Positions 10,449-28,779 are shown, counted from the stretch's first letter. The stretch is DNA of 32,000 bases from Streptomyces sp. NBC_00258 (GCF_036182465.1 NZ_CP108081.1:3374349-3406348), one strand, 5' to 3'. Made by a program: numbers and translations. The notes: generated by a model from the sequence alone, not told the origin.

Positions 10449-10490
10449 CCCGGGCGCCCAGCGACCCCGTACAACGCGACAGGAGAACTC

Positions 10491-11332: not shown

Positions 11333-11346
11333 CCGCCCGCGCCCGC

Positions 11347-11934
11347 TCAGCGGCCGCGCAGAGCGGCCAGTGTGGCCTCCAGGTCGGCCGCGCGAGGGCG
11401 GTTGTGCGGCAGCTTGCCGAGCAGGACGGCCATGGTGCAGGTGTTGGTGAGCGCGGAGAGGACCAGGCCGCCCGCGACCCCGGCCGAGAGGAGCTGGAAG
11501 GCCGGGTGGACGAACAGTCCCAGGGCCAGTCCGACGAGTACGAGCGTGCCGGCGGTGAGGCGCACCTGGCGTTCCATGGCCCAGACGACGCGGGCACCGG
11601 AGGCCGGGGGCCGGTCCAGGTCGTTCCCCTCGGCAGCCCACGCGGTCGTGCCGCCGGCAAGGGTCGCCGCGGCGATGTCCTCTCCGGCCAGGAGTTCGCA
11701 GGCTGCCTGGGAGCGGTTGCCGGAGGCACACACCATCAGGACGTCACCGCGCTCGGCGGCATGCCGTAGTCCGGGCAGCACCCGCCGCACCTGGTCCAGC
11801 GGGATGTTCAGGGCGCCGGGCAGATGACCCGAGGCGTACTCGCCCGGCGTCCGTACGTCGATGACGGTGAGGTCGTGCAGCCGGCTGCGGGCCTGGCCGA
11901 CGCCGAGGACGACGGGCGTGGGGGAAACGGTCAT
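11347..11934 (-). CDS. rhodanese-domain sulfurtransferase fused to a DUF2892 (YgaP-like) membrane domain
   Basis: Composite ORF 11347-12813 trimmed to ATG 11934, which has AGGAG upstream. Rhodanese active-site loop VLMVCASGNRS. C-terminal membrane part with the LTNTC motif (ERQVRLTAGTLVLVGLALGL...SALTNTCTMAVLLGKLP). Confidence 0.85.
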   Translation of the reverse strand: MTVSPTPVVLGVGQARSRLHDLTVIDVRTPGEYASGHLPGALNIPLDQVRRVLPGLRHAAERGDVLMVCASGNRSQAACELLAGEDIAAATLAGGTTAWAAEGNDLDRPPASGARVVWAMERQVRLTAGTLVLVGLALGLFVHPAFQLLSAGVAGGLVLSALTNTCTMAVLLGKLPHNRPRAADLEATLAALRGR

Positions 11935-15124: not shown

Positions 15125-15742
15125 TCACTCGGTCGGTGCTGTCACTCCTCCTGGCCGGTGCGGCATCCGTACGTCGACGGCCGTGAGCGCCAGCGCCAGC
15201 GGTCCCGGCGCCAGGAACGCCAGCGGCAGCAGCATCCAGGCGCACAACGCGGCCGCCGCGACGGCGAGCAGGACGAGACCGCTGCCACCCACGTCCCGTA
15301 CGGAGTCCCGGGCGGCCCCGACCACGGCCGCCCGCCAGTCGGTGAGCGACTCCGGGCGCCCGCAGGCGCGAAGGCCCACGACGGCCGCGTACGTGCCGAT
15401 GGCGGCGGCGGCGAAAGCGAACAGCGGGGCGCCCGGCAGTCCGGCGCGTGCCAGGGCGAGGTCCGCCCAGAGCAGCAGGACGCCGGCCAGGGACAGCGCC
15501 CCGGCAGCGAGGTCCCCGGCGCGCAGGCGTCGTCGCAGCGTCGTCAAGTACCGCCCCGCCGTGGCCGGTTGGTCCTCGCGGGCGCCGCGCAGGACCGCGC
15601 AGGCCGTGGACAGCGCCGCCGGCAAGGTGACGACCGGCAGCGACACCAGGGCCGTGCAGACGCCGACGCTCAGCACGTCCGCGAACAGCGTCATGCGCGG
15701 CCCGAAGATCTCGCCCGTCTCGCGGGCCTGTCCGGCGCTCAT
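15125..15742 (-). CDS. DUF624 (YesL-like) membrane protein accompanying the sugar ABC permeases
   Basis: ORF 15125-16498 trimmed to ATG 15742, which overlaps the permease stop as ATGA. 205 aa with multiple TM segments (LSVGVCTALVSLPVVTLPAALSTACAVLR). Confidence 0.6.
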   Translation of the reverse strand: MSAGQARETGEIFGPRMTLFADVLSVGVCTALVSLPVVTLPAALSTACAVLRGAREDQPATAGRYLTTLRRRLRAGDLAAGALSLAGVLLLWADLALARAGLPGAPLFAFAAAAIGTYAAVVGLRACGRPESLTDWRAAVVGAARDSVRDVGGSGLVLLAVAAAALCAWMLLPLAFLAPGPLALALTAVDVRMPHRPGGVTAPTE

Positions 15743-16602
15743 CCCTTGATCCCGGAGTTCGCCATGCCCTCGACCAGGAACCGCTGGAAGGCGAGGAAGA
15801 ACAGGACGATCGGGAGGAGGGCGATCACCGACATGGCGAACATCGGGCCGAACGCGGACTGGCTGGACGCGTCCACGAACGACCTGAGCGCCAGCGTGAG
15901 CGTGAACTTCTCCGGCGAGAAGAGGTAGATCAGCTGGGTGAAGAAGTCGTTCCAGGTCCAGATGAAGGTGAAGATCGCCGTGGTGATGAGTGCCGGACGG
16001 GTGAGCGGGAGGATCACCAGGAAGAAGCTCCTGAACGGCCCGCACCCGTCGATCCGCGCCGCCTCCTCCAGTTCGCGCGGCAGCCCTCGCATGAACTGCA
16101 CGATGAGGAAGACGAAGAACGCCTCCGTGGCAAGGAACTTGGGCAGGATCAGCGGCCAGTAGGTGTTCACCATGCCGAGCTGGTTGAAGATGATGTACTG
16201 CGGGATCAGCACGGCGTGGTGCGGCAGCATGATCGTCGCGATCATGAACGCGAACAGCGGGCCGCGGAAGCGGAATCGCAGCCGGGCGAAGGCGTACGCG
16301 GCCAGCGAGCAGCTCAGTACGTTCCCGACGACCGCGCCGCCCGCGATGAACAGCGAGTTGCCGAGCAACTGCCACACGGAGACGTCGTTCACGCCGTCGA
16401 GGGCCGTCTTGTAGTTGGACCACTCCAGGCTGCTGGGCAGCAGGTCGAGGCTGGCGATGACCTCGTCGGCGGGCTTGAGCGAGGTCGCGAGCAGCCATGC
16501 CAGCGGGTACAGCATCACGAGCAGCGCGGCCAGACAGCCGAGGTGCAGGGCGACGCGACGCCAGGCGACGGGCTTGCGTACGGCGACAGTTGAGGTGGTC
16601 AT
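15739..16602 (-). CDS. carbohydrate ABC transporter permease (MalG-like)
   Basis: Trimmed to ATG 16602 (ATGA overlap). 287 aa. EAA loop present (ELEEAARIDGCGPFRSFFLVILPLTRPAL). Confidence 0.9.
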   Translation of the reverse strand: MTTSTVAVRKPVAWRRVALHLGCLAALLVMLYPLAWLLATSLKPADEVIASLDLLPSSLEWSNYKTALDGVNDVSVWQLLGNSLFIAGGAVVGNVLSCSLAAYAFARLRFRFRGPLFAFMIATIMLPHHAVLIPQYIIFNQLGMVNTYWPLILPKFLATEAFFVFLIVQFMRGLPRELEEAARIDGCGPFRSFFLVILPLTRPALITTAIFTFIWTWNDFFTQLIYLFSPEKFTLTLALRSFVDASSQSAFGPMFAMSVIALLPIVLFFLAFQRFLVEGMANSGIKG

Positions 16603-17540
16603 CGGTCCCCCTCGGACGCGTAGAAGACCCAGGATCGCGAGGTCCGGAACAGTACGGCGGTCACGGCTCCGATGACGAGGAGCAGTACCCAGGCCATCGC
16701 GGAGGCGTAGCCCATGTGGGAGGCGACGAAGCCGCGGTCGTAGAGGTAGAGCGTGTAGAAGAGCGTCGAGTCGGCGGGGCCGCCCTTGCCCGCGCTCACC
16801 GCGAACGCCGGGGTGAAGACCTGGAAGGCCTGGATGGTCTGGAGCACCAGGTTGAAGAAGATCACCGGGGAGAGCATGGGCACGGTGATGGACAGGAACT
16901 GGCGCCATCGGCTCGCTCCGTCCACGGACGCGGCCTCGTACAGCTCCGAGGGGATCTGCTGGAGTCCGGCGAGGAAGATGACCATGGGGGCGCCGAACTG
17001 CCACACCGTCAGCAGGGCGACGGCGAAGAGTGCCCAGCCCGGCCGGTTGACCCAGCCGCCCGTGCCCAGCAGGTTGTCGACCGTTCCGCCGTCGTTGAAC
17101 ACCGCCCGCCACACCAGGGCGATGGACATGGAGGCGCCGAGCAGGGAGGGGGCGTAGAAGGCCGAGCGGTAGAAGCCGCGGCCGCGCCGCATGGACTTGA
17201 GGGCGAGTGCGACGACCAGGGCGAGGCCGAGTTGGAGGGGCACGGCGATGACGACGTACGTGAGTGTCGCGACGACCGAGCGCCAGTAGCGCGGGTCCTC
17301 GGTGAACATCTGCGTGTAGTTGCGCAGGCCCACCCATCGGGGCGGGTTGAACAAGTCGTAGTCCGTGAAGGAGAGATAGAGCGAGACGGCCATCGGGAGC
17401 AGGGTCAGCACGGCGGCGCCGAGGACCCACGGGGAGAGGAACACCCAGGCGGCGCCCTCGCGTCGGCGCCTTCCGGGTCGCTTCGGTGGTGTGGAGGGCT
17501 TCCCTGCGCGGGCGGTGGCCGGTACTTCGGTGGTGGTCAT
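16599..17540 (-). CDS. carbohydrate ABC transporter permease (MalF-like)
   Basis: Trimmed to ATG 17540 (ATGA overlap). 313 aa. EAA loop present (ELYEAASVDGASRWRQFLSITVPMLSPVI). Confidence 0.9.
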   Translation of the reverse strand: MTTTEVPATARAGKPSTPPKRPGRRRREGAAWVFLSPWVLGAAVLTLLPMAVSLYLSFTDYDLFNPPRWVGLRNYTQMFTEDPRYWRSVVATLTYVVIAVPLQLGLALVVALALKSMRRGRGFYRSAFYAPSLLGASMSIALVWRAVFNDGGTVDNLLGTGGWVNRPGWALFAVALLTVWQFGAPMVIFLAGLQQIPSELYEAASVDGASRWRQFLSITVPMLSPVIFFNLVLQTIQAFQVFTPAFAVSAGKGGPADSTLFYTLYLYDRGFVASHMGYASAMAWVLLLVIGAVTAVLFRTSRSWVFYASEGDR

Positions 17541-18865
17541 GACCTCAGCTCCGCCTTCGCCTCGGTGACGTAGTCCTCGGCCGCCTCGCGGGGCGACATC
17601 TGCTCGTAGGACACCTGGTCGTAGTCCCGCTGGAAGGTGGTCTGCAGGGCACTGTCGCCCGAAGGCGGCGCCTGCGGCGGGGAGTTGAGGGTTCCGTCCA
17701 CGGAGGCCTGGTAGTCGGCGACCGTCTTGTCGAAGTCCTTCAGCTCGGGGGCCAGCGTCGTACGGATCGACTCGTTGACCGGGATGCCACGGGTCGCGCC
17801 CAGGATCTTCGCCGCGTCCCGGTCGTTCAGCATGAAGTCGATGAGCCTGGCCGACTCCTCGGGATGGCCCGAGTCGGCCGCGACGCCCATGAACATCGAC
17901 GGCTTGAAGTACTGGCCGGGGGTGCCGTCCTCGCCCGAGGGCATCGGCGCGAGCGTCACGCCCGTCGGGACGAGAGCCACGTATCCGCTCGACGGGGCGT
18001 CCCAGTTGAAGTCGGAGACGGACTTGCCGCGGCCGAGCGGGGTGTTCTCGACCGCGCCGTCGAGCTGGGTGGTCTGCTCGGCGGGCGACACCGCGCCCTC
18101 CCGGCGGAGCTTGTCGGTGAAGGTCCACCAGCGGGTCAAGTCATCCGCGGTGAAGCCAAGTTCGCGGTCCTTGGTGTAGAGCGACCTGCCCTGGCCGCGC
18201 AGCCACACCTCGAAGGCGTCCTCGCTCTGGCCCGGGTCGGTGGCGCCGGGCTTCCCGGTCTTCTCGGCGAGGGCGCGCATGGCGTCGGCCCAGTCGCTCC
18301 AGGTCCAGCCCTTCCGCGGCTTCTCGACGCCGGACGACTCCCACGCCTTGGTGTCGTACACGACCGTCTCCGTGCCGCGGGCCTGCGGGAGCGCGTACTG
18401 CTTGCCGTCCACGACCCCGGTGGCGAGCAGGCCGCGGTCGAACTCCTCGGTCCGTACGGCCTGTTGCTTCCCCAGGTCGAGGAGGACGCCGCCGGACGCG
18501 TACTGGTCGATCATGCGGTAGTCGAGCTGCATCACGTCCGGGGCGTCGCCGCCGGCCGCCTGGGTGGCGAGCTTCTGCTTGTAGGCGTCGTATCCGGAGA
18601 AGGAGGTCTGGACAACGATGTCCGGGAACTTCTTCTCGAAGAGGTCGATGGCCTCCTGGGTTCGGGCCGCTCTGTCCGGGTTGCCCCACCAGGTGTAGCG
18701 CAGGACGACGTTGCCGCCCGCGCTGCTCGACCCGCCCGTGTCGGAGCAGCCGGTGAGTGCCGTTGCCGCCGCGCAGAGCGCGAGGGCCGCGGTCGTCGTG
18801 CGAGACGGCCGGGGCTTGGCGGTCCTGCGGAACGGCCAGGACTTCCTTGTCCTGTTTCCGGGCAT
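17537..18865 (-). CDS. extracellular sugar-binding lipoprotein (ABC CUT1 family SBP)
   Basis: 442 aa. Signal peptide with lipobox LTGC. Contains YTWWGNPDRAARTQEAIDLFEKKFPDI. GAGGTG RBS. Confidence 0.9.
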   Translation of the reverse strand: MPGNRTRKSWPFRRTAKPRPSRTTTAALALCAAATALTGCSDTGGSSSAGGNVVLRYTWWGNPDRAARTQEAIDLFEKKFPDIVVQTSFSGYDAYKQKLATQAAGGDAPDVMQLDYRMIDQYASGGVLLDLGKQQAVRTEEFDRGLLATGVVDGKQYALPQARGTETVVYDTKAWESSGVEKPRKGWTWSDWADAMRALAEKTGKPGATDPGQSEDAFEVWLRGQGRSLYTKDRELGFTADDLTRWWTFTDKLRREGAVSPAEQTTQLDGAVENTPLGRGKSVSDFNWDAPSSGYVALVPTGVTLAPMPSGEDGTPGQYFKPSMFMGVAADSGHPEESARLIDFMLNDRDAAKILGATRGIPVNESIRTTLAPELKDFDKTVADYQASVDGTLNSPPQAPPSGDSALQTTFQRDYDQVSYEQMSPREAAEDYVTEAKAELRS

Positions 18866-18886
18866 GAGTGGGTCACCTCATTCGCT

Positions 18887-18900
18887 AGAAAGCGCTTCCA
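18887..18900. promoter_or_regulatory. LacI/GalR-type operator-like palindrome
   Basis: AGAAAGCGCTTCCA (10 of 14 positions self-complementary, central GCGC core). It lies in the 65-bp divergent gap between the SBP and the Gfo/Idh/MocA gene. Confidence 0.3.
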
Positions 18901-18930
18901 CCCCCCGGTACGACCCTAGGGAAGGTCCTG

Positions 18931-20346
18931 ATGTCAGAACAAGACCCGTGCATCGCATCCGCCACATCCGTCTCGTCGGCCGCGCCCGTCGCGCCTGTCG
19001 GGGCCGTCGGGGGAAAGCGTCGTCGTTGTGCCGTGGTGGGGCTGGGTGCGCGTGCGCGGATGTTCACCGAGGCGCTGACCGGGCCGTACGCGGACCGGAT
19101 CGAATTGGTGGGCTTCTGTGACGTCAACGCCCGTCGTATGGCCGTCCACAACGGGTGGATCGCGGCCGATCATCCTGGGCGGGGGGCCGTGCCTGCTTAC
19201 GCCGCCGAGGACTTCGAGGTCATGTTGCGGCGCGAGCGGGTGGATCTTGTTGTTGTGTGCAGTGTCGACCGCACCCATGACGACTACATCGTGCGAGCGC
19301 TGGAAGCGGGGTGCGACGTCGTCACGGAGAAGCCGATGACCACGGACGCCGACAAGGCCCGCCGCATTCTCGATGCTCGGCGGCGGACCGGGGGTGACGT
19401 GCGGGTCGCCTTCAACTACCGCTACAACCCGGTGCATTCGGCTGTACGGGAACTCATCGCGGCCGGGGAGATCGGCGAGGTCGGGTCGGTGCACTTCGAG
19501 TGGCTGCTCGATCTGCGGCACGGTGCGGACTACTTCCGGCGGTGGCACCGGGACAAGGCCAACTCCGGTGGGCTGATGGTCCACAAGGCCACGCATCACT
19601 TCGATCTGGTCAACTGGTGGTTGGGCACGGAGCCGGAGACCGTGTTCGCGCAGGGCGGGCTGTTCTTCTACGGCGAGGAGGCCGGGCGGCGGCGGGGGCT
19701 TGCTCGGCCCTATGCCCGGGCTCACGGGGCCGCTGCGGCGGAGGGGGATCCGTTCGCGGTGCGGCTTGCGGACTCCGAGGTGCTGCGTGCGCTCTATCTG
19801 GAGGCGGAGGCTGAGGACGGGTATCACCGCGACCAGAACGTGTTCGGGCCCGGGGTCAGCATCGAGGACGACATGGCCGTGCTTGTGCGGTATGCGTCCG
19901 GGGCCTCGTTGACGTATCACTTGACCGCCTACTCCCCCTGGGAGGGGTATCGCGTCGCCTTCAACGGGAGCGAAGGGCGGCTGGAGCTGTTGGTGGAGGA
20001 GTCGACGTGGACTCGGTCCGCGGTGCGGGCCGACGGGGCGAGTCCTGTCATGCACGGGGCGGCTGTCGGGGATGAGGCCGGGCGTACGGAGTTGTTGCTG
20101 CGGCGGTTCTGGGAGCCGGCTCGTGAGGTGAAGGTCGGGGGCGGGGTGGGTGCCGCTGAGGGTGGACATGGGGGTGGAGATGTGCGGATGCTGGCCGATC
20201 TGTTCGGCCCTCGGTCCGGCGGGGATGCCCTGGGGCGGGCTGCCGACGCGGTTGACGGGGCGAGGTCGTTGGTCACCGGGCTGGCCGCCAACGAGTCGTT
20301 CGAGACCGGGTTGCCCGTGCGGGTGCGGGATCTGTTGGACGTCTGA
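18931..20346 (+). CDS. Gfo/Idh/MocA family oxidoreductase
   Basis: 471 aa. Rossmann start CAVVGLGARARMF, then VVVCSVDRTHDDYIVRALEAGCDVVTEKP and the GGLMVHKATHHFDLVNWW motifs. The true start is uncertain, because the first ~30 codons have different codon usage. Confidence 0.85.
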   Translation: MSEQDPCIASATSVSSAAPVAPVGAVGGKRRRCAVVGLGARARMFTEALTGPYADRIELVGFCDVNARRMAVHNGWIAADHPGRGAVPAYAAEDFEVMLRRERVDLVVVCSVDRTHDDYIVRALEAGCDVVTEKPMTTDADKARRILDARRRTGGDVRVAFNYRYNPVHSAVRELIAAGEIGEVGSVHFEWLLDLRHGADYFRRWHRDKANSGGLMVHKATHHFDLVNWWLGTEPETVFAQGGLFFYGEEAGRRRGLARPYARAHGAAAAEGDPFAVRLADSEVLRALYLEAEAEDGYHRDQNVFGPGVSIEDDMAVLVRYASGASLTYHLTAYSPWEGYRVAFNGSEGRLELLVEESTWTRSAVRADGASPVMHGAAVGDEAGRTELLLRRFWEPAREVKVGGGVGAAEGGHGGGDVRMLADLFGPRSGGDALGRAADAVDGARSLVTGLAANESFETGLPVRVRDLLDV

Positions 20347-20371
20347 CGTCGTCGGCAGGCCGCGGGCTGCC

Positions 20372-20806
20372 TCACCAAGTGACGTGCAGGTTCTCGGGTG
20401 AGCGGTGGATCAGGGTCGGGCGCATCGTGACCGGGTGGTCGTCGGTGAGGCGGAGGGTGGGGAAGCGGGTCGTCAACTGCTACAGGGTCAGGCGGAGTTG
20501 CTCTCTCGCCAGTTGGGATCCTGGGCAGGTGTGCACCCCCAGGCCGAATGCCAGGTGCCGGCCCGGGGTGCGGGTGATGTCGAACCGCGAGGACGGCGGG
20601 GCCGGCATCACGTCCGGGCGCAGCGCGTTCGCCGAGGAGAAGTCGTCCGGGCGGCGGAGGATCTCCCTGACGTCCTCGTCTCTGGCCGCCAGCCAGGCGT
20701 CGAGTTCCGGGATGAACGTCAGGCCTTTGGCCCTTCTCGCGCGCTCGTAGTGGGGGTACGGGTCTCGTTGCAACTCGTCGAGTCTGCTGTGCGGTTCACC
20801 GTCCAC
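20372..20806 (-). pseudogene. cytochrome P450 relic: internal deletion plus in-frame TAG
   Basis: The N-terminal ~65 aa (DPYPHYERARRAKGLTFIPELDAWLAARDEDVREILRRPDDFSS) run directly into the C-terminal heme loop (RFDITRTPGRHLAFGLGVHTCPGSQLAR). TAG at 20480-20482 interrupts the frame. The same frame then continues QLTTRFPTLRLTDDHPVTMRPTLIHRSPENLHVTW to TGA at 20372-20374. Confidence 0.75.
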
Positions 20807-20865
20807 GGGGTCATGGTGCCGGACGCGTTCGGGGGCGGCTAGGGCGCTTCCGGGCCGGTGTGGGT

Positions 20866-20991
20866 GGGGCGGGGCCGTGCCGGTATGTCACGTTCGCGAC
20901 TGCCGGGCGTACGGCCCTGAGTCCTATTGGTGGGCGTTTCCAGCGGGAGCCGTACGTCGCGAACGTTGACATACCGGCACGGCCCCGCCCC
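20866..20991. repeat. 35/36-bp near-perfect inverted repeat with 55-nt spacer (MITE-like or long hairpin)
   Basis: Left arm GGGGCGGGGCCGTGCCGGTATGTCACGTTCGCGAC (20866-20900). The reverse complement of 20956-20991 is identical except for one extra A. An inner 8-bp pair is CGTACGGC/GCCGTACG. GGGT abuts both outer ends. Confidence 0.85.
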
Positions 20992-20993
20992 GG

Positions 20994-21485
20994 GTGCGTC
21001 GGCGGGTGCGGGGGACTTGGGTGGTTTTTGCCTACGATCTTGGCGTGGCTCTCTTTGTTGTGCGGCGGGACAGCGTGGTGGGTGTCGGTGAGGCTTGGCG
21101 GCGGCTCACTGCGTGGGAGAGGCATGCGGATGTGGTGCCCCTGACCCGGATCACTGTTGCCGCGAGGGCGGGGGGTGGCGTGGGCACCATGTTCGTGGCC
21201 CGGACCGGGGTCGGGGTACTTGCGTTTGATGACCCCATGGAGGTTGTCGTGTGGCGGCCGCCTGTGGGAGGGCGGGCCGGGGTCTGTCGGCTCGTCAAGC
21301 GGGGGGCTTTTGTAACTGGGTGGGCCGAGATTGAGGTGCGTTCGGGGGTGGGCGGTGGTTCGCGGGTCGTGTGGCGAGAGGAGTTGAGGGTGTGGGGGGT
21401 GTCCCGGGTTTTTGATTCCTTGGTGGGGTGGGTGGCTCGGTGGGTGTTCGGGCGGGTTGTGCGTCGGCTGTTGGTGCGGCCCTGA
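20994..21485 (+). CDS. SRPBCC (polyketide cyclase/START-like) family protein; start uncertain (GTG 20994, 21021 or 21042)
   Basis: 163-aa ORF. The segments EAWRRLTAWERHADVVPLTRI, FVARTGVGVLAFDDPMEVVVWRPP and VTGWAEIEVRSGVGGGSRVVWREELRV match my recollection of a conserved actinobacterial SRPBCC family. Composition is very atypical. Confidence 0.55.
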   Translation: MRRRVRGTWVVFAYDLGVALFVVRRDSVVGVGEAWRRLTAWERHADVVPLTRITVAARAGGGVGTMFVARTGVGVLAFDDPMEVVVWRPPVGGRAGVCRLVKRGAFVTGWAEIEVRSGVGGGSRVVWREELRVWGVSRVFDSLVGWVARWVFGRVVRRLLVRP

Positions 21486-21544
21486 CGGGGTGTGGGGCGT
21501 CCTCCACATGTCCGGCTGACGGTCCGTGGTGGGATGGCTGACGG

Positions 21545-22084
21545 TCAGGGATGGGATGGAGGTCGCGGCTGGAGGTTCTCGGGCAGCTCCGTGTACTTCA
21601 TGTACGCCTCCCGGCTGTCCGAGACGAAGGGCCACTGCCACAGCCTCTGTCGCAGCTCGGCCTCGGGCAGCCAGTCGTGCCACGCGATCTCCGACGGGTC
21701 CGGCGTGATGTCCCCGTCGACCTCATCGATGACGGCCTCGTGCAACCCGAGCCAGTACGGGCTGATCTCTCCCCGACAGAGGTACTTGAAGGCGAAGCGG
21801 ACCGTGGCCCTGATTCCGAGTTCCTCCTTCAGCTCCCGGGTCGCGGCCTCCTCGTAGGACTCCCCCGCTTCGACGGCTCCGCCCAGCAGCCAGTTGTACT
21901 GGCCGGGGAAGCGTGTGACGTGCTCCGGCCTGCGGTGCACGAGTATGCGTCCCCCTGGGTCGCGGCATACGACCGTGGCCACCCGGTGCAGCCAGCCGCG
22001 GCGGACGGCTTCGCCCCGGTCGACGATGTCGAGTACCCGGTCGTGCTCGTCGACGCGTTCCACCTGCTCGCCCGTGAGAGTCAT
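21545..22084 (-). CDS. NUDIX hydrolase
   Basis: Nudix box GGAVEAGESYEEAATRELKEELGI. ORF 21545-22156 trimmed to ATG 22084 (MTLTGEQVERVDEHDRVLDIV...). The longer start at 22156 cannot be excluded. Confidence 0.85.
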   Translation of the reverse strand: MTLTGEQVERVDEHDRVLDIVDRGEAVRRGWLHRVATVVCRDPGGRILVHRRPEHVTRFPGQYNWLLGGAVEAGESYEEAATRELKEELGIRATVRFAFKYLCRGEISPYWLGLHEAVIDEVDGDITPDPSEIAWHDWLPEAELRQRLWQWPFVSDSREAYMKYTELPENLQPRPPSHP

Positions 22085-22145
22085 GGAGCCCACCCTGCCA
22101 AAAGTCTGTGGAGTGCGGCCGAGCGGACTTGCGAGACTGGGATCC

Positions 22146-22805
22146 ATGAGCGACATGGAGAGATTCCGTCGGGCCGTTGTCGAGTGGGCGGCCGGTGGAG
22201 TGGGGGCGTCGGCGGCCGGTGAGAGCGCGCGGGAGCTGGCGGTCGGGGTCGGGCTGCGTACGGTCGTGCTCGTCGAGGGGGGCAGCGATCAGGTCGCGGT
22301 CGAGGTGCTGGCCACGCGGCGTGGCCGGGATCTGGATGCCGAGGGTGTGTCGGTCGTGCCGCTCGGGGGTGCGACCAGTGTCAGCAGGTTCGTGGATCTG
22401 TGCGGGCCTCAGGGGCTCGGCGTGCGGCTGGCCGGCCTGTGCGATGTCGGGGAGGAGCGCTTCTTCCGGCGGGCGCTGGAGCGGGCCGGGCTCGGCTCCG
22501 ACATCCCGCCGGAGGGGCTGGAACCACTTGGTTTCTACGTGTGCGACATGGACCTGGAGGACGAGTTGATCCGGGCTCTGGGCGCCGAGGTCGTGCAGCA
22601 AGTCGTGGTGGAACAGGGCGAGTCGAGGCCGTTCCGCACCTTCCGGAACCAGCCCGCCCAGCGGGAGCGGACCGTGGAGCAGCAGTTGCGGAGGTTCTTG
22701 GGCACGCACAGTGGCCGCAAGGCACAGTACGCGCGCGGGATGGTCGAGAGTCTGGATCTGGAGCGGACGCCTCGGCCGTTGGAGCGGCTTCTCGCCCACG
22801 TCTGA
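22146..22805 (+). CDS. stand-alone TOPRIM (OLD-nuclease-type) domain protein
   Basis: ORF 21894-22805 trimmed to ATG 22146 (alternative 22155). Toprim Glu in TVVLVEGGSDQVAVEVL. Acidic DxD cluster in FYVCDMDLEDELIRALG. Conserved tail QLRRFLGTHSGRKAQYA. No ATPase domain. Confidence 0.7.
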   Translation: MSDMERFRRAVVEWAAGGVGASAAGESARELAVGVGLRTVVLVEGGSDQVAVEVLATRRGRDLDAEGVSVVPLGGATSVSRFVDLCGPQGLGVRLAGLCDVGEERFFRRALERAGLGSDIPPEGLEPLGFYVCDMDLEDELIRALGAEVVQQVVVEQGESRPFRTFRNQPAQRERTVEQQLRRFLGTHSGRKAQYARGMVESLDLERTPRPLERLLAHV

Positions 22806-22856
22806 CTCTCGCCCCCTCCTGAGGACGCGTCTCGCCCCGGGGCGGGTGCGCCTGTG

Positions 22857-24014
22857 TCAGGCCACCGAACCTATTCGTGCGGTGGGCCTCAGTGTCGACG
22901 ACATGTCGTGGTGGATGGGGGTGTGGGCGCCGGTGAGTGAGACTCCGGTGCCGCCTCGCCTGTTGGCGACGATCTCCGCGGCTATGGAGAGGGCCGTCTC
23001 CTCGGGCGTGCGGGCTCCCAGGTCGAGCCCGATCGGGGAGCGCAGGCGGGCCAACTCCAGTTCGGTTACGCCGACTTCGCGGAGACGTTCGTTGCGGTCC
23101 AGGTGGGTGCGGCGGGAGCCCATCGCTCCGACGTACGCCACGGGGAGGCGGAGCGCGAGCCGGAGGAGGGGTACGTCGAACTTGGCGTCGTGGGTCAGGA
23201 CACAGAGGACCGTGCGGGCATCGACGTGCGTGCGCTCCAGGTAGCGGTGTGGCCAGTCGACCACGATCTCGTCGGCCTCCGGGAAGCGGGCCGATGTCGC
23301 GAAGACCGGGCGGGCGTCGCACACCGTGACGCGGTAGTTCAGGAACTTGCCGATACGGACCAGGGCGGAGGCGAAGTCGATCGCTCCGAAAACGATCATC
23401 CTGGGTGGCGGGACCGATGATTCGATGAGGAGTGTGAGGGGTGCTCCGCAGCGAGAGCCCTGCTCTCCGATCTCCAGGGTGCCTGTGCGGCCCGCGTCCA
23501 GGAAGGCGCGCGCCTCGTCCACGGCCGTCCGGTCCAGTTCCGGGTGGGCGCCGAATCCGCCCTCGTACGAGCCGTCCGGGCGGACCAGCAGGGCGCGGCC
23601 CAGGAGTTCCGGAGGTCCGGATGCGATACGCACCACTGCCGCCGCCTCCCCGCGCGTGGCGGTGGCGAGGGCCTGAGTGAAGATCTCCCGGTCGGAGTCC
23701 TCGGCGCGTACCGGCGTGACCAGGATGTCGATGATGCCGCCGCAGGTCAGGCCCACGGCGAACGCGTCGTCGTCGCTGTAGCCGAAGCGTTCCAGGACCG
23801 GCTTCCCGTCCGCCAACGCCTGTTGGCACAGCTCGTACACCGCGCCCTCCACACAGCCGCCGGAGACCGAGCCGATCGCCGTGCCGTCGGCGTCCACCGC
23901 GAGGGCGGCGCCGGGCTGACGAGGAGCGCTGCCGCCGACGGCCACCACGGTGGCCACGGCGAAGTCGCGTCCCTGCTCGACCCACCGGTGCAGCTCTTCG
24001 GCGATGTCCAGCAT
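22857..24014 (-). CDS. XdhC/CoxI family molybdenum-cofactor insertion accessory protein
   Basis: Composite ORF trimmed to ATG 24014, with AGGAGA upstream. 385 aa. Contains ATVVAVGGSAPRQPGAALAVDADGTAIGSVSGGCVEGAV and the Rossmann-like MIVFGAIDFASALVRIGKFLNYRVTVCDAR. Confidence 0.9.
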   Translation of the reverse strand: MLDIAEELHRWVEQGRDFAVATVVAVGGSAPRQPGAALAVDADGTAIGSVSGGCVEGAVYELCQQALADGKPVLERFGYSDDDAFAVGLTCGGIIDILVTPVRAEDSDREIFTQALATATRGEAAAVVRIASGPPELLGRALLVRPDGSYEGGFGAHPELDRTAVDEARAFLDAGRTGTLEIGEQGSRCGAPLTLLIESSVPPPRMIVFGAIDFASALVRIGKFLNYRVTVCDARPVFATSARFPEADEIVVDWPHRYLERTHVDARTVLCVLTHDAKFDVPLLRLALRLPVAYVGAMGSRRTHLDRNERLREVGVTELELARLRSPIGLDLGARTPEETALSIAAEIVANRRGGTGVSLTGAHTPIHHDMSSTLRPTARIGSVA

Positions 24015-24061
24015 CTCTCGTTCTCCTAACGGTGGTTGGGGTGGCTCGTCGGTCGGGTCGG

Positions 24062-24087
24062 CCCCGCGCCCCGAAAGGGGCGCGGGG
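24062..24087. terminator. perfect 11-bp GC stem with GAAA loop after the permease gene
   Basis: CCCCGCGCCCC-GAAA-GGGGCGCGGGG. It lies 70 nt downstream of the permease stop on the minus strand. Confidence 0.6.
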
Positions 24088-24157
24088 AGCTGCGCGACCA
24101 GCCACGACGGACCCGCGGACGAAGCACCCCCAACCAGCGGAGCGCCTCGCGGAGCGC

Positions 24158-25615
24158 CTAGTGGACGCCCATCCAGCTCTCGATCGGGTTCAGGGCGAAG
24201 TAGACGAGGAAGATCGCCGTCAGGCCCCACATGAACGCCCCGATCTCCCGCGCCTTGCCCTGGGCGACCTTGATGGCGACGTAGCTGATGACTCCGGCCG
24301 CGACACCCGCGGTGATGGAGTACGTGAACGGCATGATCACGACCGTCAGGAAGACCGGGATCGCGGTGGCGCGGTCGGCCCAGTCGACGTGCCGGGCGTT
24401 CATCATCATCATGGCGCCGATGACGACCAGGGCCGCGGCCGCGACCTCGCCCGGGACGATCGCCGTCAGCGGGGTGAAGAAGAGACAGGCCGCGAAGAAC
24501 AGGCCCGTGATGACCGAGGAGAGGCCCGTGCGGGCGCCTTCGCCTACGCCTGTGGCGGACTCGACGAACACCGTCTGGCCCGAGGCGCCCGAGACGCCGC
24601 CGATCGCGCCGCCCGCGCCGTCGATGAACAGCGCCTTGGACAGACCCGGCATCCGGCCCTTGTCGTCGGCCAGCTTGGCCTCGGTGCCGACGCCGATGAT
24701 GGTGGCCATCGCGTCGAAGAACCCGGCGAGGACAAGGGTGAAGACGATCATGCCGACCGTCATCGCGCCGACCTGGCCCCAGCCGCCGAACTCCACGTCT
24801 CCGAAGATCGAGAAGTCTGGCATGGACACCGCGCTGCCGTGCAGCTCGGGTGCGCCGCTGGCCCACTGCTTGGCGTCGATGACGTCCAGGGCATTGAGGA
24901 CGACGGCGAGTACGGTGCCGCCGACGATGCCGATCAGGATCGCGCCGGGGATGCCGCGCGCCTGGAGCATGAAGATGGCGAGCAGGGTGACGGCGAAGAG
25001 CAGGACCGGCCAGCCGGCGAGTTCACCGGTCGCACCGAGGGAGAGCGGGGTCGCCTCGCCCTGGTGGACGAAGCCCGCCTTCACCAGGCCGATCAGGGCG
25101 ACGAACAGGCCGATGCCCATGGTGATCGCGTGCTTCAGCGCCAGCGGGATCGCGTTCATGATCATCTCGCGCAGCCCGGTGACCACCAGGAGCATGATCA
25201 CGACGCCGTACATCACACACATGCCCATGGCCTGCGGCCAGGTCATCTGGGGAGCGACCTGCGAGGAGAGGACGCCGGAGACGGAGAGTCCGGCGGCCAG
25301 GGCGAGCGGCACCTTGCCGAAGAAGCCCATCAGGAGCGTGGTGAAGGCCGCCGCGAACGCGGTCGCGGTGATCAGGGCCTTCTGGCCGAGCGTGTCCCCC
25401 GCCGCGTCCTTGCCGGACAGGATCAGCGGGTTGAGCAGCAGGATGTACGCCATCGCCATGAAGGTCGTGACGCCGCCGCGCACCTCACGCGCGACCGAGC
25501 TTCCTCGCTTGGATATGTGAAAGTACCGGTCGAGCCAGGACCTGCCGGCCGGGATACGGGTTCCTTCACCCGCATCGTCGGCGGTGGTCCTCGGCTCCAG
25601 TGACTGCTGGGTCAT
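24158..25615 (-). CDS. NCS2 family purine permease (AzgA/PbuG-like adenine/guanine/hypoxanthine transporter)
   Basis: 485 aa. N-terminus LDRYFHISKRGSSVAREVRGGVTTFMAMAYILLLNP is typical of the family. Polytopic membrane protein. GGGAG RBS. Confidence 0.9.
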   Translation of the reverse strand: MTQQSLEPRTTADDAGEGTRIPAGRSWLDRYFHISKRGSSVAREVRGGVTTFMAMAYILLLNPLILSGKDAAGDTLGQKALITATAFAAAFTTLLMGFFGKVPLALAAGLSVSGVLSSQVAPQMTWPQAMGMCVMYGVVIMLLVVTGLREMIMNAIPLALKHAITMGIGLFVALIGLVKAGFVHQGEATPLSLGATGELAGWPVLLFAVTLLAIFMLQARGIPGAILIGIVGGTVLAVVLNALDVIDAKQWASGAPELHGSAVSMPDFSIFGDVEFGGWGQVGAMTVGMIVFTLVLAGFFDAMATIIGVGTEAKLADDKGRMPGLSKALFIDGAGGAIGGVSGASGQTVFVESATGVGEGARTGLSSVITGLFFAACLFFTPLTAIVPGEVAAAALVVIGAMMMMNARHVDWADRATAIPVFLTVVIMPFTYSITAGVAAGVISYVAIKVAQGKAREIGAFMWGLTAIFLVYFALNPIESWMGVH

Positions 25616-25732
25616 GTGGGCCTACTCCCAAGGTTCACAGGGACACCCGCGGTTGCCTTCGGCGTTGCGGGATTTGGGAACGTGCTTCGGCCGCACGACC
25701 CGGGGGACGGCCCGAGACGAACGAACTGAGTA

Positions 25733-25777
25733 CTCCGGGCAGCGCGGAGTGTGTGACGTTCCGTGCGCCGCCCGGAG
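25733..25777. terminator. 13-bp stem hairpin immediately after the xanthine dehydrogenase large subunit
   Basis: Minus-strand RNA CUCCGGGCGGCGC...(19 nt)...GCGCUGCCCGGAG (one G-U pair). It starts 6 nt after the stop codon and is followed by a T-containing stretch. Confidence 0.45.
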
Positions 25778-25783
25778 GGTCTG

Positions 25784-28183
25784 TCACGCGGTTCCGGTGA
25801 GGTGTTCCGGACGTACCGGCGTGCGGTTGAGCTCCAGCCCGGTCGCGTTCCGAATTGCCGCAAGGACAGCCGGAGTCGACGACAGGGTCGGTGCCTCGCC
25901 GATGCCACGGAGCCCGTACGGCGCGTGGTCGTCGGCGAGTTCGAGCACGTCGACGGGGATGGTCGGCGTGTCGAGGATCGTGGGGATGAGGTAGTCGGTG
26001 AAGGAGGGGTTCCTGACCTTCGCCGTCTTGGGGTCGACGATGATCTCCTCCATGACCGCGATGCCCAGGCCCTGGGTCGTACCGCCCTGGATCTGGCCGA
26101 TGACGGACAGCGGGTTGAGCGCCTTGCCGACGTCCTGGGCGCAGGCCAGTTCGATGACCTTCACCAGGCCCAGCTCGGTGTCCACCTCGACGACCGCGCG
26201 ATGGGCGGCGAAGGAGTACTGGACATGGCCGAAGCCCTGGCCCGTACGGAGGTCGAAGGGCTCGGTCGGCCGGTGCCGCCACTCCTCCTCGACCTCGACG
26301 GCCTCGCCTTCGAGTACGTCCACCAGGTCGGCCAGTACCTCGCCGCCGTCGGTGACGACCTTGCCGCCCTCCAGGAGCAGTTCGGCGGTGGCCCAGGCGG
26401 GGTGGTACGAACCGAACTTGCGGCGGCCGATCTCCAGGACCTTCTCGCGGACCAGCTCGCAGGAGTTCTTGACGGCGCCGCCGGTGACGTACGTCTGGCG
26501 GGACGCGGAGGTCGAACCGGCCGAGCCCACCTGTGTGTCGGCCGGGCGGATCGTCACCTGCGAGACGCCCAGCTCGGTGCGCGCGATCTGCGCGTGGACG
26601 GTGACGCCGCCCTGGCCGACCTCCGCCATCGCGGTGTGGACGGTGGCCACCGGCTCGCCGCCGACGACTTCCATGCGGACCTTGGCCGTTGAATAGTCGT
26701 CGAAGCCCTCGGAGAAGCCGACGTTCTTGATGCCGACCGCGTAGCCGACACCTCGTACGACGCCTTCGCCGTGGGTGGTGTTGGAGAGGCCGCCGGGCAG
26801 CTGGCGGACGTCCGCCGCCTCGCCGGCCGCGAGCCACTGCTGCTCCGGCGGCATGGGCATCGCCTTGACGCGGCGCAGGAGTTCGGCGACCGGGGCCGGG
26901 GAGTCGACCGGCTGGCCGGTCGGCATGATCGTGCCCTGGGACATCGCGTTCAGCCGGCGGAACTCGACCCGGTCCATGCCCACCTTGTCGGCGAGCTTGT
27001 CCATCTGAGCCTCGTAGGCGAAGCACGCCTGGACCGCGCCGAAGCCGCGCATGGCGCCGCAGGGCGGGTTGTTGGAGTAGAGGGCGATCGATTCGATGTC
27101 GACGTCTTCGAGTACGTACGGGCCGACCGCGAGGGACGCCGCGTTGCCGACGACCGCCGGGGACGCGGAGGCGTAGGCGCCGCCGTCCAGGACGATGCGG
27201 CACTTCATGTGCGTCAGCTTGCCGTCCTTCGTCGCCCCGTGCTCGTAGTGGAGCTTCGCGGGGTGGCGGTGGACGTGGCCGAAGAAGGACTCGAAACGGT
27301 TGTAGACGATCTTGACCGGCTTGCCCGTGCGCAGTGCGAGGAGGCAGGCGTGGATCTGCATCGACAGGTCCTCGCGGCCGCCGAACGCGCCGCCGACGCC
27401 GGACAGCGTCATGCGGACCTTGTCCTCGGGGAGGCCGAGGACGGGTGCGATCTGCTTGAGGTCCGAGTGCAGCCACTGGGTGGCGATGTAGAGGTCGACG
27501 CCACCGTCCTCGGAGGGCACCGCGAGACCGGACTCCGGGCCGAGGAAGGCCTGGTCCTGCATGCCGAAGGTGTACTCGCCCTCGACGATGTGGTCAGCGC
27601 GCTTCCGGGCTTCGTCGACGTCGCCGCGGAGGATCGGCTGGCGGTGCACGATGTTCGGGTGCGGGACGTGGCCGATGTGGTGGTCGTCGCGGCCCTCGTG
27701 GACGAGGATCGCGTCGGGCGCGGTCGCGGACGCCTCGTCCGTGATGACCGGCAGTTCCCGGTACTCCACCTTGATCTTGGCGGCGGCGCGTCGGGCGGTC
27801 TCAGGGTGGTCGGCGGCGACGATCGCGACCGGCTCGCCGTGGTGGCGGACCTTGCCGTGCGCGAGCACCGGGGTGTCCTGGATCTCCAGGCCGTAGTTCT
27901 TCACGTCGGTCGGCAGGTCGTCGTACGTCATGACGGCGTAGACGCCGGGGGTCTTCAGCGCCTCGACCGTGTCGATGGAGACGATCTCGGCGTGGGCGAC
28001 CGTGGAGCGCAGGATCTGGCCCCAGAGCATGTCCTCGTGCCACATGTCGGAGGAGTACGCGAACTCGCCGGTGACCTTGAGGATGCCGTCCGGGCGGAGG
28101 GTGGACTCGCCGATGCCGCCCTTGGTCCGGGAACCCTGGGTGACCTTGGTGGGAGTGCCGAGGGGAGCGCTTTTGCCGGGCAT
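25784..28183 (-). CDS. xanthine dehydrogenase family, molybdopterin-binding large subunit
   Basis: Composite ORF trimmed to ATG 28183. 799 aa. Motifs: GEFAYSSDM, HHGEPVAIVAA, VGGAFGGRED, GAMRGFGAVQACFAYE, GLRGIGEAPT. Confidence 0.9.
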   Translation of the reverse strand: MPGKSAPLGTPTKVTQGSRTKGGIGESTLRPDGILKVTGEFAYSSDMWHEDMLWGQILRSTVAHAEIVSIDTVEALKTPGVYAVMTYDDLPTDVKNYGLEIQDTPVLAHGKVRHHGEPVAIVAADHPETARRAAAKIKVEYRELPVITDEASATAPDAILVHEGRDDHHIGHVPHPNIVHRQPILRGDVDEARKRADHIVEGEYTFGMQDQAFLGPESGLAVPSEDGGVDLYIATQWLHSDLKQIAPVLGLPEDKVRMTLSGVGGAFGGREDLSMQIHACLLALRTGKPVKIVYNRFESFFGHVHRHPAKLHYEHGATKDGKLTHMKCRIVLDGGAYASASPAVVGNAASLAVGPYVLEDVDIESIALYSNNPPCGAMRGFGAVQACFAYEAQMDKLADKVGMDRVEFRRLNAMSQGTIMPTGQPVDSPAPVAELLRRVKAMPMPPEQQWLAAGEAADVRQLPGGLSNTTHGEGVVRGVGYAVGIKNVGFSEGFDDYSTAKVRMEVVGGEPVATVHTAMAEVGQGGVTVHAQIARTELGVSQVTIRPADTQVGSAGSTSASRQTYVTGGAVKNSCELVREKVLEIGRRKFGSYHPAWATAELLLEGGKVVTDGGEVLADLVDVLEGEAVEVEEEWRHRPTEPFDLRTGQGFGHVQYSFAAHRAVVEVDTELGLVKVIELACAQDVGKALNPLSVIGQIQGGTTQGLGIAVMEEIIVDPKTAKVRNPSFTDYLIPTILDTPTIPVDVLELADDHAPYGLRGIGEAPTLSSTPAVLAAIRNATGLELNRTPVRPEHLTGTA

Positions 28184-28185
28184 GG

Positions 28186-28779
28186 TCAGACCGCCTCTCC
28201 CTGTCGGGCGGCCGCCAGGCGGACCGCGTCCATGATCTTCTCGTAGCCGGTGCAGCGGCAGAGGTTGCCCGACAGCGCCTCGCGGATGTCCGCGTCGCTC
28301 GGGGTCGGGTTGCGCTCCAGCATCTCGTCGGCGGCGACCAGCAGGCCGGGCGTGCAGAAGCCGCACTGGACGGCGCCGGCGTCGATGAACGCCTGCTGGA
28401 TCGGGGAGAGTTCGGTGCCTTCGCCCGCCTGGGAGTCCGAAGGCCTGGCCGCCCACTGCTTGGCCGCGTCCAGGGGCGTACCGCAGGCTCCGGAAGCCCC
28501 GGAGGCACAACCTCCGTGCTCCGCACGCTGTTTGGCGAAGTCGGCGAGGCCCTCGACCGTGACGACCTCGCGGCCCTCGACCTGGCCGGCCGCGACGAGG
28601 CACGAACACACCGGTACGCCGTCCAGGCGGACCGTGCAGGAGCCGCACTCGCCCTGCTCGCAGGCGTTCTTGGAGCCGGGAAGCCCCATGCGCTCGCGCA
28701 GGACGTAGAGCAGGCTCTCGCCCTCCCAGACATCGTCGGCTTCCTGTGGACGGCCGTTGACCGTGAAATTGACGCGCAT
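28186..28779 (-). CDS. xanthine dehydrogenase family, [2Fe-2S] small subunit (with long inter-domain insert)
   Basis: Trimmed to ATG 28779. 197 aa. First cluster CEQGECGSCTV...CSC, second cluster QCGFCTPG...NLCRCTGY. Confidence 0.9.
   Translation of the reverse strand: MRVNFTVNGRPQEADDVWEGESLLYVLRERMGLPGSKNACEQGECGSCTVRLDGVPVCSCLVAAGQVEGREVVTVEGLADFAKQRAEHGGCASGASGACGTPLDAAKQWAARPSDSQAGEGTELSPIQQAFIDAGAVQCGFCTPGLLVAADEMLERNPTPSDADIREALSGNLCRCTGYEKIMDAVRLAAARQGEAV

Follow-up and report, generated by a model that had tools for sequence, protein, structure and literature searches.

An eroding one-strand skew island around an oriented palindromic element in Streptomyces sp. NBC_00258

We analysed a 32,000-nt stretch of Streptomyces sp. 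NBC_00258 (GCF_036182465.1 NZ_CP108081.1:3374349-3406348; hereafter the window, numbered from its first letter), which overall consists of Streptomyces DNA of ~70% G+C. Its central part carries an SBP gene (-), a Gfo/Idh/MocA-family oxidoreductase gene (+, hereafter Gfo), a cytochrome P450 remnant (-), a palindromic element, an SRPBCC-family gene termed ORF163 (+), a NUDIX gene (-), a gene for an OLD-like TOPRIM protein (+), an XdhC-family gene (-) and a permease gene (-), in this order (Table 1). Across this region the plus strand is enriched in G over C and in T over A whichever way the genes point, and the palindrome lies at the apparent epicentre of the bias.

Table 1. Features of the skewed region (positions in the window)
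Feature	Position	Strand	Basis and remarks
Left boundary, divergent SBP/Gfo intergenic spacer	18866..19017		Unskewed, G46 C54 T25 A27
Gfo/Idh/MocA-family oxidoreductase	18931..20346	+	Pfam; recoding at synonymous sites, T3 0.14, G3>C3
Cytochrome P450 remnant	20480..20887	-	Weak Pfam match, haem-loop region; A3 0.13, T3 0.01
Oriented palindromic element, ~165 nt, apparent island epicentre	20843..21012	+	Hairpin fold, conservation, other contexts
ORF163, SRPBCC-family protein, skew peak	20994..21485	+	NCBI names orthologues SRPBCC; recoded at all three codon positions
NUDIX hydrolase	21545..22156	-	Pfam; weak signature, 19 A- versus 11 T-ending codons; skewed spacers on either side
Stand-alone OLD-like TOPRIM protein	22215..22805	+	Pfam PF20469; T3 0.10, G3 0.52
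XdhC-family accessory protein, fading right edge	22857..24014	-	Plus-strand C>T fraction 0.05-0.12

A first-pass annotation had described positions 19010-22805 as an island of extreme strand asymmetry. Its hand counts were exact (G231 C95 T118 A36 at 21001-21480; G37 C55 T13 A15 in an ordinary gene segment at 3301-3420; G/C of 30/14, 27/13 and 33/12 in 60-nt lines of Gfo and 34/14 in TOPRIM), and the island is real, although slightly wider than proposed (~18.95-24.0 kb). On the plus strand, 19010-22805 contains G1564 C1059 T713 A460, corresponding to a GC skew of +0.19 and a TA skew of +0.22, with mean absolute skews of 0.208 (GC) and 0.236 (TA) that rise to 0.39/0.45 in ORF163 alone. The 500-nt bin at 21001 (21001-21500) has a GC skew of +0.42 and an AT skew of -0.54. 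The two skews are correlated across the island (r=0.59, p=1e-12) and uncorrelated in the flanks (r=-0.05 and 0.18). The annotation had asked whether the skew is an outlier, and we measured it against 6,088 bins of 500 nt from 1.55 Mb of related actinomycete loci. The keto skew, (G+T-A-C)/N, of the 21001 bin is 0.456, above every background bin (maximum 0.408). The remaining extreme patches in the background represent a different phenomenon, comprising tandem repeats, a poly-G/C stretch containing an N-run that is probably an assembly gap, and membrane-protein genes skewed at codon positions 1-2. G+C content is slightly lower in the island (0.68-0.71) than around it (0.70-0.75), and the boundary spacers are unskewed at both ends (18866-19017 and 24015-24157). 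A ~0.9-kb non-coding tandem-repeat array in the SBP-Gfo spacer of S. cavernae (L006 9000-10100; L numbers denote comparison loci) has an extremely C+A-rich plus strand (keto skew -0.41) and is unrelated to the island signature.

The asymmetry is equally evident in codon usage. Ordinary genes of the window have T3 (the fraction of codons ending in T; A3, G3 and C3 likewise) of ~0.05 and C3 above G3, compared with T3 of 0.10-0.23 and G3 above C3 in the plus-strand island genes. The Leu codon TTG, previously flagged as recurrent, makes up 11/37, 3/10 and 4/24 of the Leu codons in these three genes; elsewhere, in normal genes, it accounts for 16/518 (3%). ORF163 represents the extreme, with T3 of 0.23 and 37, 33 and 5 codons ending in T, C and A, close to the earlier estimate of ~35, 33 and 4; its protein contains neither Gln nor Asn but 37 Val, 26 Arg, 22 Gly and 9 Trp, in agreement with the V/G/R/W-rich, Gln-free composition reported for it. 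The P450 remnant on the minus strand displays the complementary pattern (14 A-ending versus 1 T-ending codons), and so does the minus-strand NUDIX orthologue of NBC_00878 (L082; 79% at the amino-acid level; A3 0.14 versus T3 0.01). The NUDIX and XdhC genes of the window itself are the weakest part of the earlier evidence. NUDIX does have an A excess, but a weaker one than the ~16 versus ~5 first counted, and the whole-sequence skew all but vanishes over its coding part, which is flanked by skewed spacers (21486-21544, G27 C15 T12 A5; 22157-22214, G31 C12 T10 A5). XdhC has 38 A-ending versus 14 T-ending codons (23 versus 6 in its 3' half), yet this excess is partly family-intrinsic, A3 exceeding T3 in its orthologues even where these are unskewed (L005, L083). 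Runs of at least four G are indeed enriched on the plus strand (10.8/kb versus 2.9/kb for C), whereas the description of that strand as full of G-quadruplex-prone sequence was overstated, with two canonical motifs in the island.

Comparison with orthologues indicated that the skew was acquired at this locus. Among 80 Gfo orthologues, T3 of 0.15-0.18 is confined to the window and the representatives of its two closest species (L001, L002); of 19 other Streptomyces, 18 have T3 of 0.02-0.06 and L065 is intermediate (0.085). Unskewed orthologues of ORF163, TOPRIM and P450 also occur in the same synteny within related Streptomyces, and because synteny is conserved the change took place in situ, which bears out the earlier argument against plain import of lower-GC DNA. 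Family-intrinsic composition, the alternative that the annotation had set against its own reading, is ruled out by the 80 Gfo orthologues together with unskewed orthologues of ORF163, P450, TOPRIM and LacI. No inversion of the locus relative to the outgroups was found. The TOPRIM gene is excluded as the cause of the skew, given that the unskewed L083 (Gfo T3 0.02, TOPRIM T3 0.04) carries it too. Unskewed ORF163 orthologues (54-58% at the amino-acid level) retain the motifs DVVPLTR and AFDDPMEV, while the window protein has shifted from P/T/L/Q/E to V/G/W/R/S. The recoded proteins form a sharply separate group of 14 clusters (S. phaeochromogenes, S. umbrinus, NBC_00878, S. albicerus and others), and the excess of amino acids with keto-rich codons is +0.37 in the window protein versus +0.12±0.05 in 106 unskewed orthologue clusters. 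The window protein matches no Pfam model, whereas its unskewed L065 orthologue matches PF10604 (E=1.5e-5); exact-protein look-ups for the window ORF163 and NUDIX returned no record. Separately, 5/6 Gfo orthologues of Kribbella (L020, L022, L025, L057, L066, ~10000-11400) have T3 of ~0.13, against a Kribbella background of ~0.07, and G3 above C3, and a minus-strand gene nearby (L025 12641-13228) has A3 of 0.20 versus T3 of 0.02; a second genus may thus have acquired a milder one-strand skew of this gene independently.

Polarised substitutions resolved the bias into a one-strand spectrum. From the unskewed L004 to the window, the plus strand at 19-21.5 kb shows 96 C>T against 4 T>C and 17 G>A, together with excesses of C>G (143 versus 71) and A>G (39 versus 17), and the flanks are symmetric. 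At Gfo third positions, 49/244 ancestral C became T and 64/244 became G, compared with 4/133 ancestral G becoming A (Fisher p=9e-7) and 16/133 becoming C. ORF163, read from outgroup to window, is biased in three classes (C>T 35 versus G>A 2, A>G 18 versus T>C 2, C>G 42 versus G>C 14). TOPRIM shows 24-32 C>T against 4-7 T>C and 9-14 G>A from the unskewed L083 to the ingroup, and XdhC 28 C>T versus 9 G>A relative to L065 (p=0.012), with no significant excess relative to L005. The signature does not depend on gene direction: the intact minus-strand P450 gene of L001 accumulated, from L004 and read on the plus strand, 63 C>T versus 6 G>A (p=4e-16) and 53 G>T versus 6 C>A, and minus-strand MoCoBD genes in L081 carry the plus-strand signature at full strength.

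The spatial profile was quantified as the fraction of ancestral plus-strand third-position C turned to T, gene by gene, in the five skewed genomes. It runs from 0.00-0.05 in the permeases and SBP through 0.16-0.26 in Gfo and 0.17-0.21 in P450 to 0.29-0.52 in ORF163, then falls to 0.17-0.29 in TOPRIM, further in XdhC, and to 0.00-0.07 beyond, the G>A fraction staying at <=0.10 throughout (0.02-0.04 in XdhC). The left edge is abrupt, the fraction dropping to 0.01-0.04 in SBP in all five genomes. Gfo and P450, neighbours of opposite orientation, have equal plus-strand C>T rates; together with the skewed spacers this shows that the bias follows the chromosomal strand and not the coding strand, so that the earlier claim of a strand-specific history independent of gene orientation is upheld. 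Codon selection is ruled out because minus-strand genes and spacers show the complementary pattern. As C>G, A>G and G>T are strand-asymmetric as well, the spectrum is broader than deamination alone. No enzyme motif emerged: 5' neighbour preferences differ between plus- and minus-strand genes, with 5'T lowest (0.10) in both, the neighbour ranking of T3 gains is the same as in normal genes, and the other preferences mirror background codon patterns. On tip branches (15200-28600), plus-strand G>T versus C>A is 66 versus 13 in the island and 17 versus 5 and 15 versus 5 in the flanks, a ~3-5 fold excess in island and flanks alike that suggests a wider regional or replication-strand asymmetry for G>T. 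The window SBP gene (17537-18865, -) diverges by 14.9-15.4% at the nucleotide level from L081 and L001, themselves only 6.7% apart, with flanks differing by 3-5%; the L002 allele is divergent too, and the window allele was probably imported by homologous recombination. An origin of the sharp left edge in this imported allele was rejected, SBP being unaffected in all five genomes.

The inverted repeat, mentioned in passing by the first-pass annotation as MITE-like (miniature inverted-repeat transposable element), proved to be an oriented, multi-copy palindrome that appears to be the epicentre of the island. It has a definite orientation, a 37-bp stem with perfect 25-nt arms, and an asymmetric loop and right-hand extension that are both conserved, and it is predicted to fold as a DNA hairpin at -61.6 kcal/mol (z=-9.3). 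The stem has been maintained, since 7 of its pairs show compensatory changes and an indel has affected the two arms in concert, and the C-rich arm is almost invariant. The element lies between Gfo and ORF163 in 5/5 skewed genomes and in 0/4 unskewed outgroups. It is non-coding and intergenic, has terminal inverted repeats, and occurs in three independent contexts (the Gfo locus, a LacI locus and L085), the further ones being located by a metagenome scan; it was absent from all other comparison loci examined. Filled and empty sites define the limits of the insertion, with no clear target-site duplication, and no transposase was seen near any copy. Searches of plasmids, phages and viral contigs yielded no copies, a peptide search through the palindrome gave nothing useful, and the best Rfam hit, a plant miRNA hairpin, reaches 40 bits where the gathering score is 197 and is no real match.

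At the LacI locus, where substitutions were counted at sites invariant in element-free genomes, T3 is 0.07-0.23 in three element-bearing genomes versus 0.02-0.08 in four element-free orthologues. The C>T:G>A ratios are 45:0, 23:3 and 11:0 with the element and 4:2, 6:6, 10:10 and 2:11 without it, the closest element-free relatives (L091, L092) contributing the unbiased 4:2 and 6:6. The bias extends to both sides of the element, into the upstream PALP gene (21:2) and the downstream SBP gene (21:1). Lineage-specific changes in L087 amount to 22:0; mutation therefore continued to accumulate after the element-bearing lineages split. In the third context, L085, both genes flanking the element lie on the minus strand and together have 73 A-ending versus 30 T-ending codons, a plus-strand gene further right has T3 of 0.12 versus A3 of 0.03, and genes lying further away are normal. 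In all three contexts it is the element's own plus strand that is enriched in T, and the skew is strongest beside the element at both the Gfo and LacI loci.

Five-taxon polarisation of the skewed ingroup placed the activity in the past. Internal branches have C>T:G>A of 24:6, 18:0, 9:3 and 7:2; the pooled internal-branch counts are 61 C>T versus 11 G>A, the C>T excess that the earlier note had proposed to look for, along with 55 C>G versus 27 G>C and 20 A>G versus 6 T>C. They comprise 212 changes in ~2,900 island sites versus 28 in 1,827 flank sites, so that the island rate is ~5x that of the flanks and >10x for C>T. Tip branches show 6:14, 4:13, 15:15, 42:27 and 20:18, with T>C above A>G. These data indicate that the process is a fossil in the window, with T>C reversion begun; it has been switched off in the window lineage, since the tips are unbiased and a 7-kb insertion splitting the island in NBC_00878 (L082) is unskewed. 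A three-taxon reading had suggested ongoing activity in L001 and L002 and was dropped in view of the unbiased five-taxon tips.

Several genes of the locus have histories of their own. The P450 remnant, rightly recognised as gutted, has lost ~765 bp internally relative to the intact 449-aa gene of L001. A -10-like TACGAT motif lies 5' of ORF163 (21033-21038) and is conserved in filled and empty sites (equivalents in L083, L082 and L002); the palindrome inserted directly upstream of the motif, so that it probably took the place of the promoter's -35 region. Between ORF163 and TOPRIM lies a gene-turnover hotspot (window 21486-22214; L001 13353-14457; L082 10548-17609; L083 10425-12227), occupied by NUDIX alone in the window, by an ArsR-like regulator and a probable cation-efflux protein in place of most of NUDIX in L001, by the 7-kb block in NBC_00878, and by a TetR and a saccharopine dehydrogenase gene in L083. 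NUDIX has been lost at least three times; a recent insertion was ruled out for it, the L082 orthologue and remnants in L001 and L002 showing it to be ancestral to the clade. A NUDIX gene also lies near the palindrome in the unrelated L085 (1318-1830, -), and another (L092 8487-8891, +) terminates the LacI-locus operon; these occurrences may be coincidence or point to a recurrent neighbour. The TOPRIM protein lacks the ATPase domain of OLD-family nucleases, and homologues ~74% identical to it, annotated as 'ATP-dependent endonuclease', are found on many large linear Streptomyces plasmids.

Taken together, we lean, with somewhat better than even confidence, towards reading the island as an eroding record of local, strand-specific hypermutation that took place in situ around the palindrome, where one strand would have been left recurrently single-stranded. 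The substitutions arose in the ancestor shared by the S. phaeochromogenes / S. umbrinus / S. albicerus group; within ~2-3 kb of the ~165-nt element in either direction, the plus strand gained C>T, C>G and A>G, locally joined by G>T, the complementary changes not being raised. Recoding reached synonymous sites throughout; in the SRPBCC gene, which is under weak constraint, it also altered the protein (Pro/Thr/Gln/Leu to Val/Gly/Trp/Ser/Arg). The elevated classes match those expected of lesions on one exposed strand, namely cytosine converted to uracil, adenine to hypoxanthine, oxidised guanine, and bypass of abasic sites (C>G). Uracil in single-stranded DNA is described as giving C>T, and C>G via abasic sites (PMC11230362). 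Because the elevated classes fit one-strand lesions, the plus strand was probably single-stranded repeatedly around the element; we infer this recurrent exposure, the simplest model to accommodate all the observations, as the mechanism, and deamination of single-stranded DNA fits the data without being proven by them. The affected strand seems to be set by the orientation of the element rather than by replication or local transcription, and replication direction is probably irrelevant to the bias. One possible version invokes repeated nicking or gapping of the opposite strand by a hairpin-specific nuclease or transposase acting in trans; the C-rich arm would then be spared through base-pairing in the single-stranded state, and lineages would differ in activity according to whether they carry the trans-acting enzyme. 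A double-strand break at the palindrome with two-sided resection was rejected, as it predicts opposite strands on the two sides and the same strand is seen on both. A bolder proposal, that the palindrome is a mobile element which itself causes strand-specific hypermutation 2-3 kb either side of its landing site and thereby supplies a seed mechanism for the skew regions known as GRINS, we advance tentatively and hold at less than even confidence.

A number of observations weigh against hypermutation around the element. Its link with the skew rests on one insertion event per locus, with two strong cases and one mild, and does not separate cause from consequence. Element-free loci can be mildly skewed (Gfo T3 0.085 in L065, ORF163 GC3 skew +0.28 in L083, LacI T3 0.08 in L092), and a recoded-looking reading frame in L005 (3031-3600, -) has no palindrome within its locus. 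No nuclease, transposase or target-site duplication was identified for the palindrome. The abrupt left edge coincides with a promoter region and suits a transcription model better than decay with distance, and G>T exceeds C>A on the plus strand of the flanks too, which may be a regional background effect. For the LacI locus, replication orientation could be read only in element-free genomes, and that of S. prunicolor differs. As an observation in its own right, the L005 frame (Streptomyces sp. NPDC046862) is an unrelated W/R/G/V-rich reading frame with a GC3 skew of +0.31, a TA3 skew of +0.76 and T3+A3 of 0.17.

Transcription offers the most serious alternative, although we consider it unlikely. 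Long-term rightward transcription with R-loops from the Gfo and ORF163 promoters would have exposed the non-template plus strand, the palindrome lying in this domain or nucleating it, with read-through across the dead P450 into the 3' end of XdhC; G-rich RNA would make the R-loops more stable and thereby strengthen the skew. Such a model would account for an island that begins at the divergent SBP/Gfo promoter spacer in five genomes, fades inside a convergent gene and is enriched in plus-strand G-runs; a spanning transcript would place the bias on the same strand on both sides of the element, and the genes next to the element point the same way at both loci where the arrangement is simplest (L082, L002, L090). 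Head-on orientation to replication favours R-loops, and the plus-strand genes of the Gfo locus are head-on. The island also resembles transcription-associated asymmetry, R-loop and somatic-hypermutation domains in its kilobase scale, its position near a promoter and its one-strand C>T, C>G and A>G. In the embedded P450, NUDIX, XdhC and MoCoBD genes, however, the mutated strand is the template strand, and the intact minus-strand P450 (L001) and MoCoBD (L081) carry the plus-strand signature undiminished. Where the element is flanked by minus-strand genes (L085), the excess remains on the element's plus strand. The model leaves unexplained why thousands of transcribed genes are unaffected and why onset coincides with element insertion at two loci; promoter and terminator scans gave no evidence for it but were uninformative. 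Unlike somatic-hypermutation domains, the island has no AID-like or APOBEC-like motif.

The palindrome might instead be a passenger, that is, a hairpin element that inserts preferentially, and in fixed orientation, into regions of which one strand is already chronically exposed, the skew having another cause. IS200/IS605- and REP-type hairpin elements act on single-stranded DNA strand-specifically, and the mild skew of near relatives that lack the element (L065, L083, L092), like the recoded-looking L005 frame, would be expected if exposure came first. We nevertheless regard this order of events as improbable, if only slightly more so than transcription. In the nearest relatives without the element, the genes that are strongly affected elsewhere are free of C>T bias (Gfo and TOPRIM in L083, LacI in L091/L092), mutation went on after insertion (22:0 in L087), and intensity is maximal beside the element at both loci.

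GRINS themselves provide the nearest precedent. These Streptomyces regions have intense, positively correlated GC and TA skews (r ~0.7 inside, ~0.09 outside), strongest at third codon positions, with enrichment of Gly/Val/Trp/Cys and depletion of Pro/Thr/His/Gln in proteins that still function; each shares >80% DNA identity with another region of >500 bp in the same cluster or genome, endonucleases overlap 15% of actinobacterial GRINS, single-copy skew regions are seen as possible precursors or relics, and the mechanism is unknown, with no mention of hairpins or palindromes (PMC8256042). The island shares the level and correlation of the skews, the third-position emphasis and the amino-acid shift, and it is in kind a single-copy instance of GRINS-type skew. 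It differs in its single skew sign over ~5 kb, its several unrelated non-polyketide-synthase genes of both orientations and the palindrome at its centre, and no duplicate was found. The strict interpretation, in which the segment is one copy of a within-genome repeat family whose skew arose or spread by gene conversion, can point to mean skews of |GC| 0.21 and |TA| 0.24 at r=0.59, and to the endonuclease annotation of the plasmid TOPRIM homologues. It is very improbable, however, as neither the 32-kb window nor the comparison loci contain a second copy, within the protein collection each genome contributes a single copy to the ORF163 clusters, the plasmid TOPRIM copy (NZ_CP109587.1 316089-316757, L084) is unskewed and <80% identical, and the substitutions are nested and tree-like, with no alternation of skew sign.

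Attack by a cytosine deaminase (an interbacterial toxin or defence enzyme), or a stay on a plasmid or phage that replicates through single-stranded DNA followed by recombination back, ranks marginally lower still. One-strand C>T with C>G is the classical outcome of deamination of single-stranded DNA followed by uracil excision, yet there is no consistent sequence context such as the TC or WRC motifs of APOBEC-, AID- or DddA-like enzymes, and TC-specific deaminases are argued against because 5'T is disfavoured in both plus- and minus-strand genes. Moreover, A>G and G>T are asymmetric too, the effect is confined to a few kilobases, the signal was built over successive branches and independently in separate lineages, and no phage or plasmid relatives of the island or element were found. 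The island likewise resembles clusters of kataegis at resected breaks or of break-induced replication, in which strand-coordinated C>T and C>G over kilobases are attributed to damage of single-stranded DNA; those clusters are single events with a strand switch across the break, whereas here the same strand is affected on both sides and across several branches of the species tree.

Ordinary causes (family-intrinsic composition, codon-usage selection, imported lower-GC DNA, replication skew or inversion) deserve almost no credence: they could draw on the slightly lower G+C and on the A3 bias of unskewed XdhC orthologues, but unskewed orthologues sit in the same synteny, minus-strand genes and spacers are complementary, the locus is not inverted relative to the outgroups, the magnitude surpasses all 6,088 background bins, and the polarity is opposite to leading-strand skew. 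This polarity follows from the position of the locus in two complete chromosomes, at 9.07/12.24 Mb (reversed) and 2.14/10.22 Mb (forward), where the G+T-rich island strand is the lagging-strand sequence, assuming a central oriC. Like replication-associated skew, the island is shifted towards G and T, presumably through the same deamination chemistry in exposed single-stranded DNA, but it is local (5 kb) rather than replichore-wide and on lagging- rather than leading-strand sequence.

As for the element, it resembles MITEs, Correia elements and the REP/REPIN hairpins that HUH-type transposases mobilise in its size of ~165 nt, near-perfect palindromic and non-coding sequence, intergenic placement in unrelated contexts and conserved structure; it differs from them in that no target-site duplication, parent transposase or high copy number came to light. 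A diversity-generating retroelement is not supported, as the spectrum is centred on C and not on A and no repeat of the region occurs in the window; no reverse transcriptase was present among the called genes of the compared loci, for which no dedicated search was made. Literature searches found no description linking palindromic elements to flanking one-strand hypermutation, and as far as they show, the link of the palindrome with one-strand skew is undescribed.

The 2021 report of intense local skews recoding functional genes in Streptomyces came with neither a mechanism nor a substitution spectrum. To it the present locus adds a polarised and dated one-strand spectrum (C>T, C>G, A>G) that is independent of gene orientation and opposite to replication skew, and it shows a skew process switching on and off over evolutionary time and then eroding. 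It also contributes a candidate sequence element, located at the island's centre, that goes together with the signature at two to three unrelated loci. Skew islands of this kind can mislead selection tests, detectors of horizontal gene transfer and homology searches, as illustrated by an SRPBCC protein that has drifted so far that its own Pfam model no longer detects it. Should the element be causal, it would constitute a portable local mutator in bacteria, capable of rapidly rewriting neighbouring proteins, and the GRINS problem would become directly testable through a 165-nt sequence.

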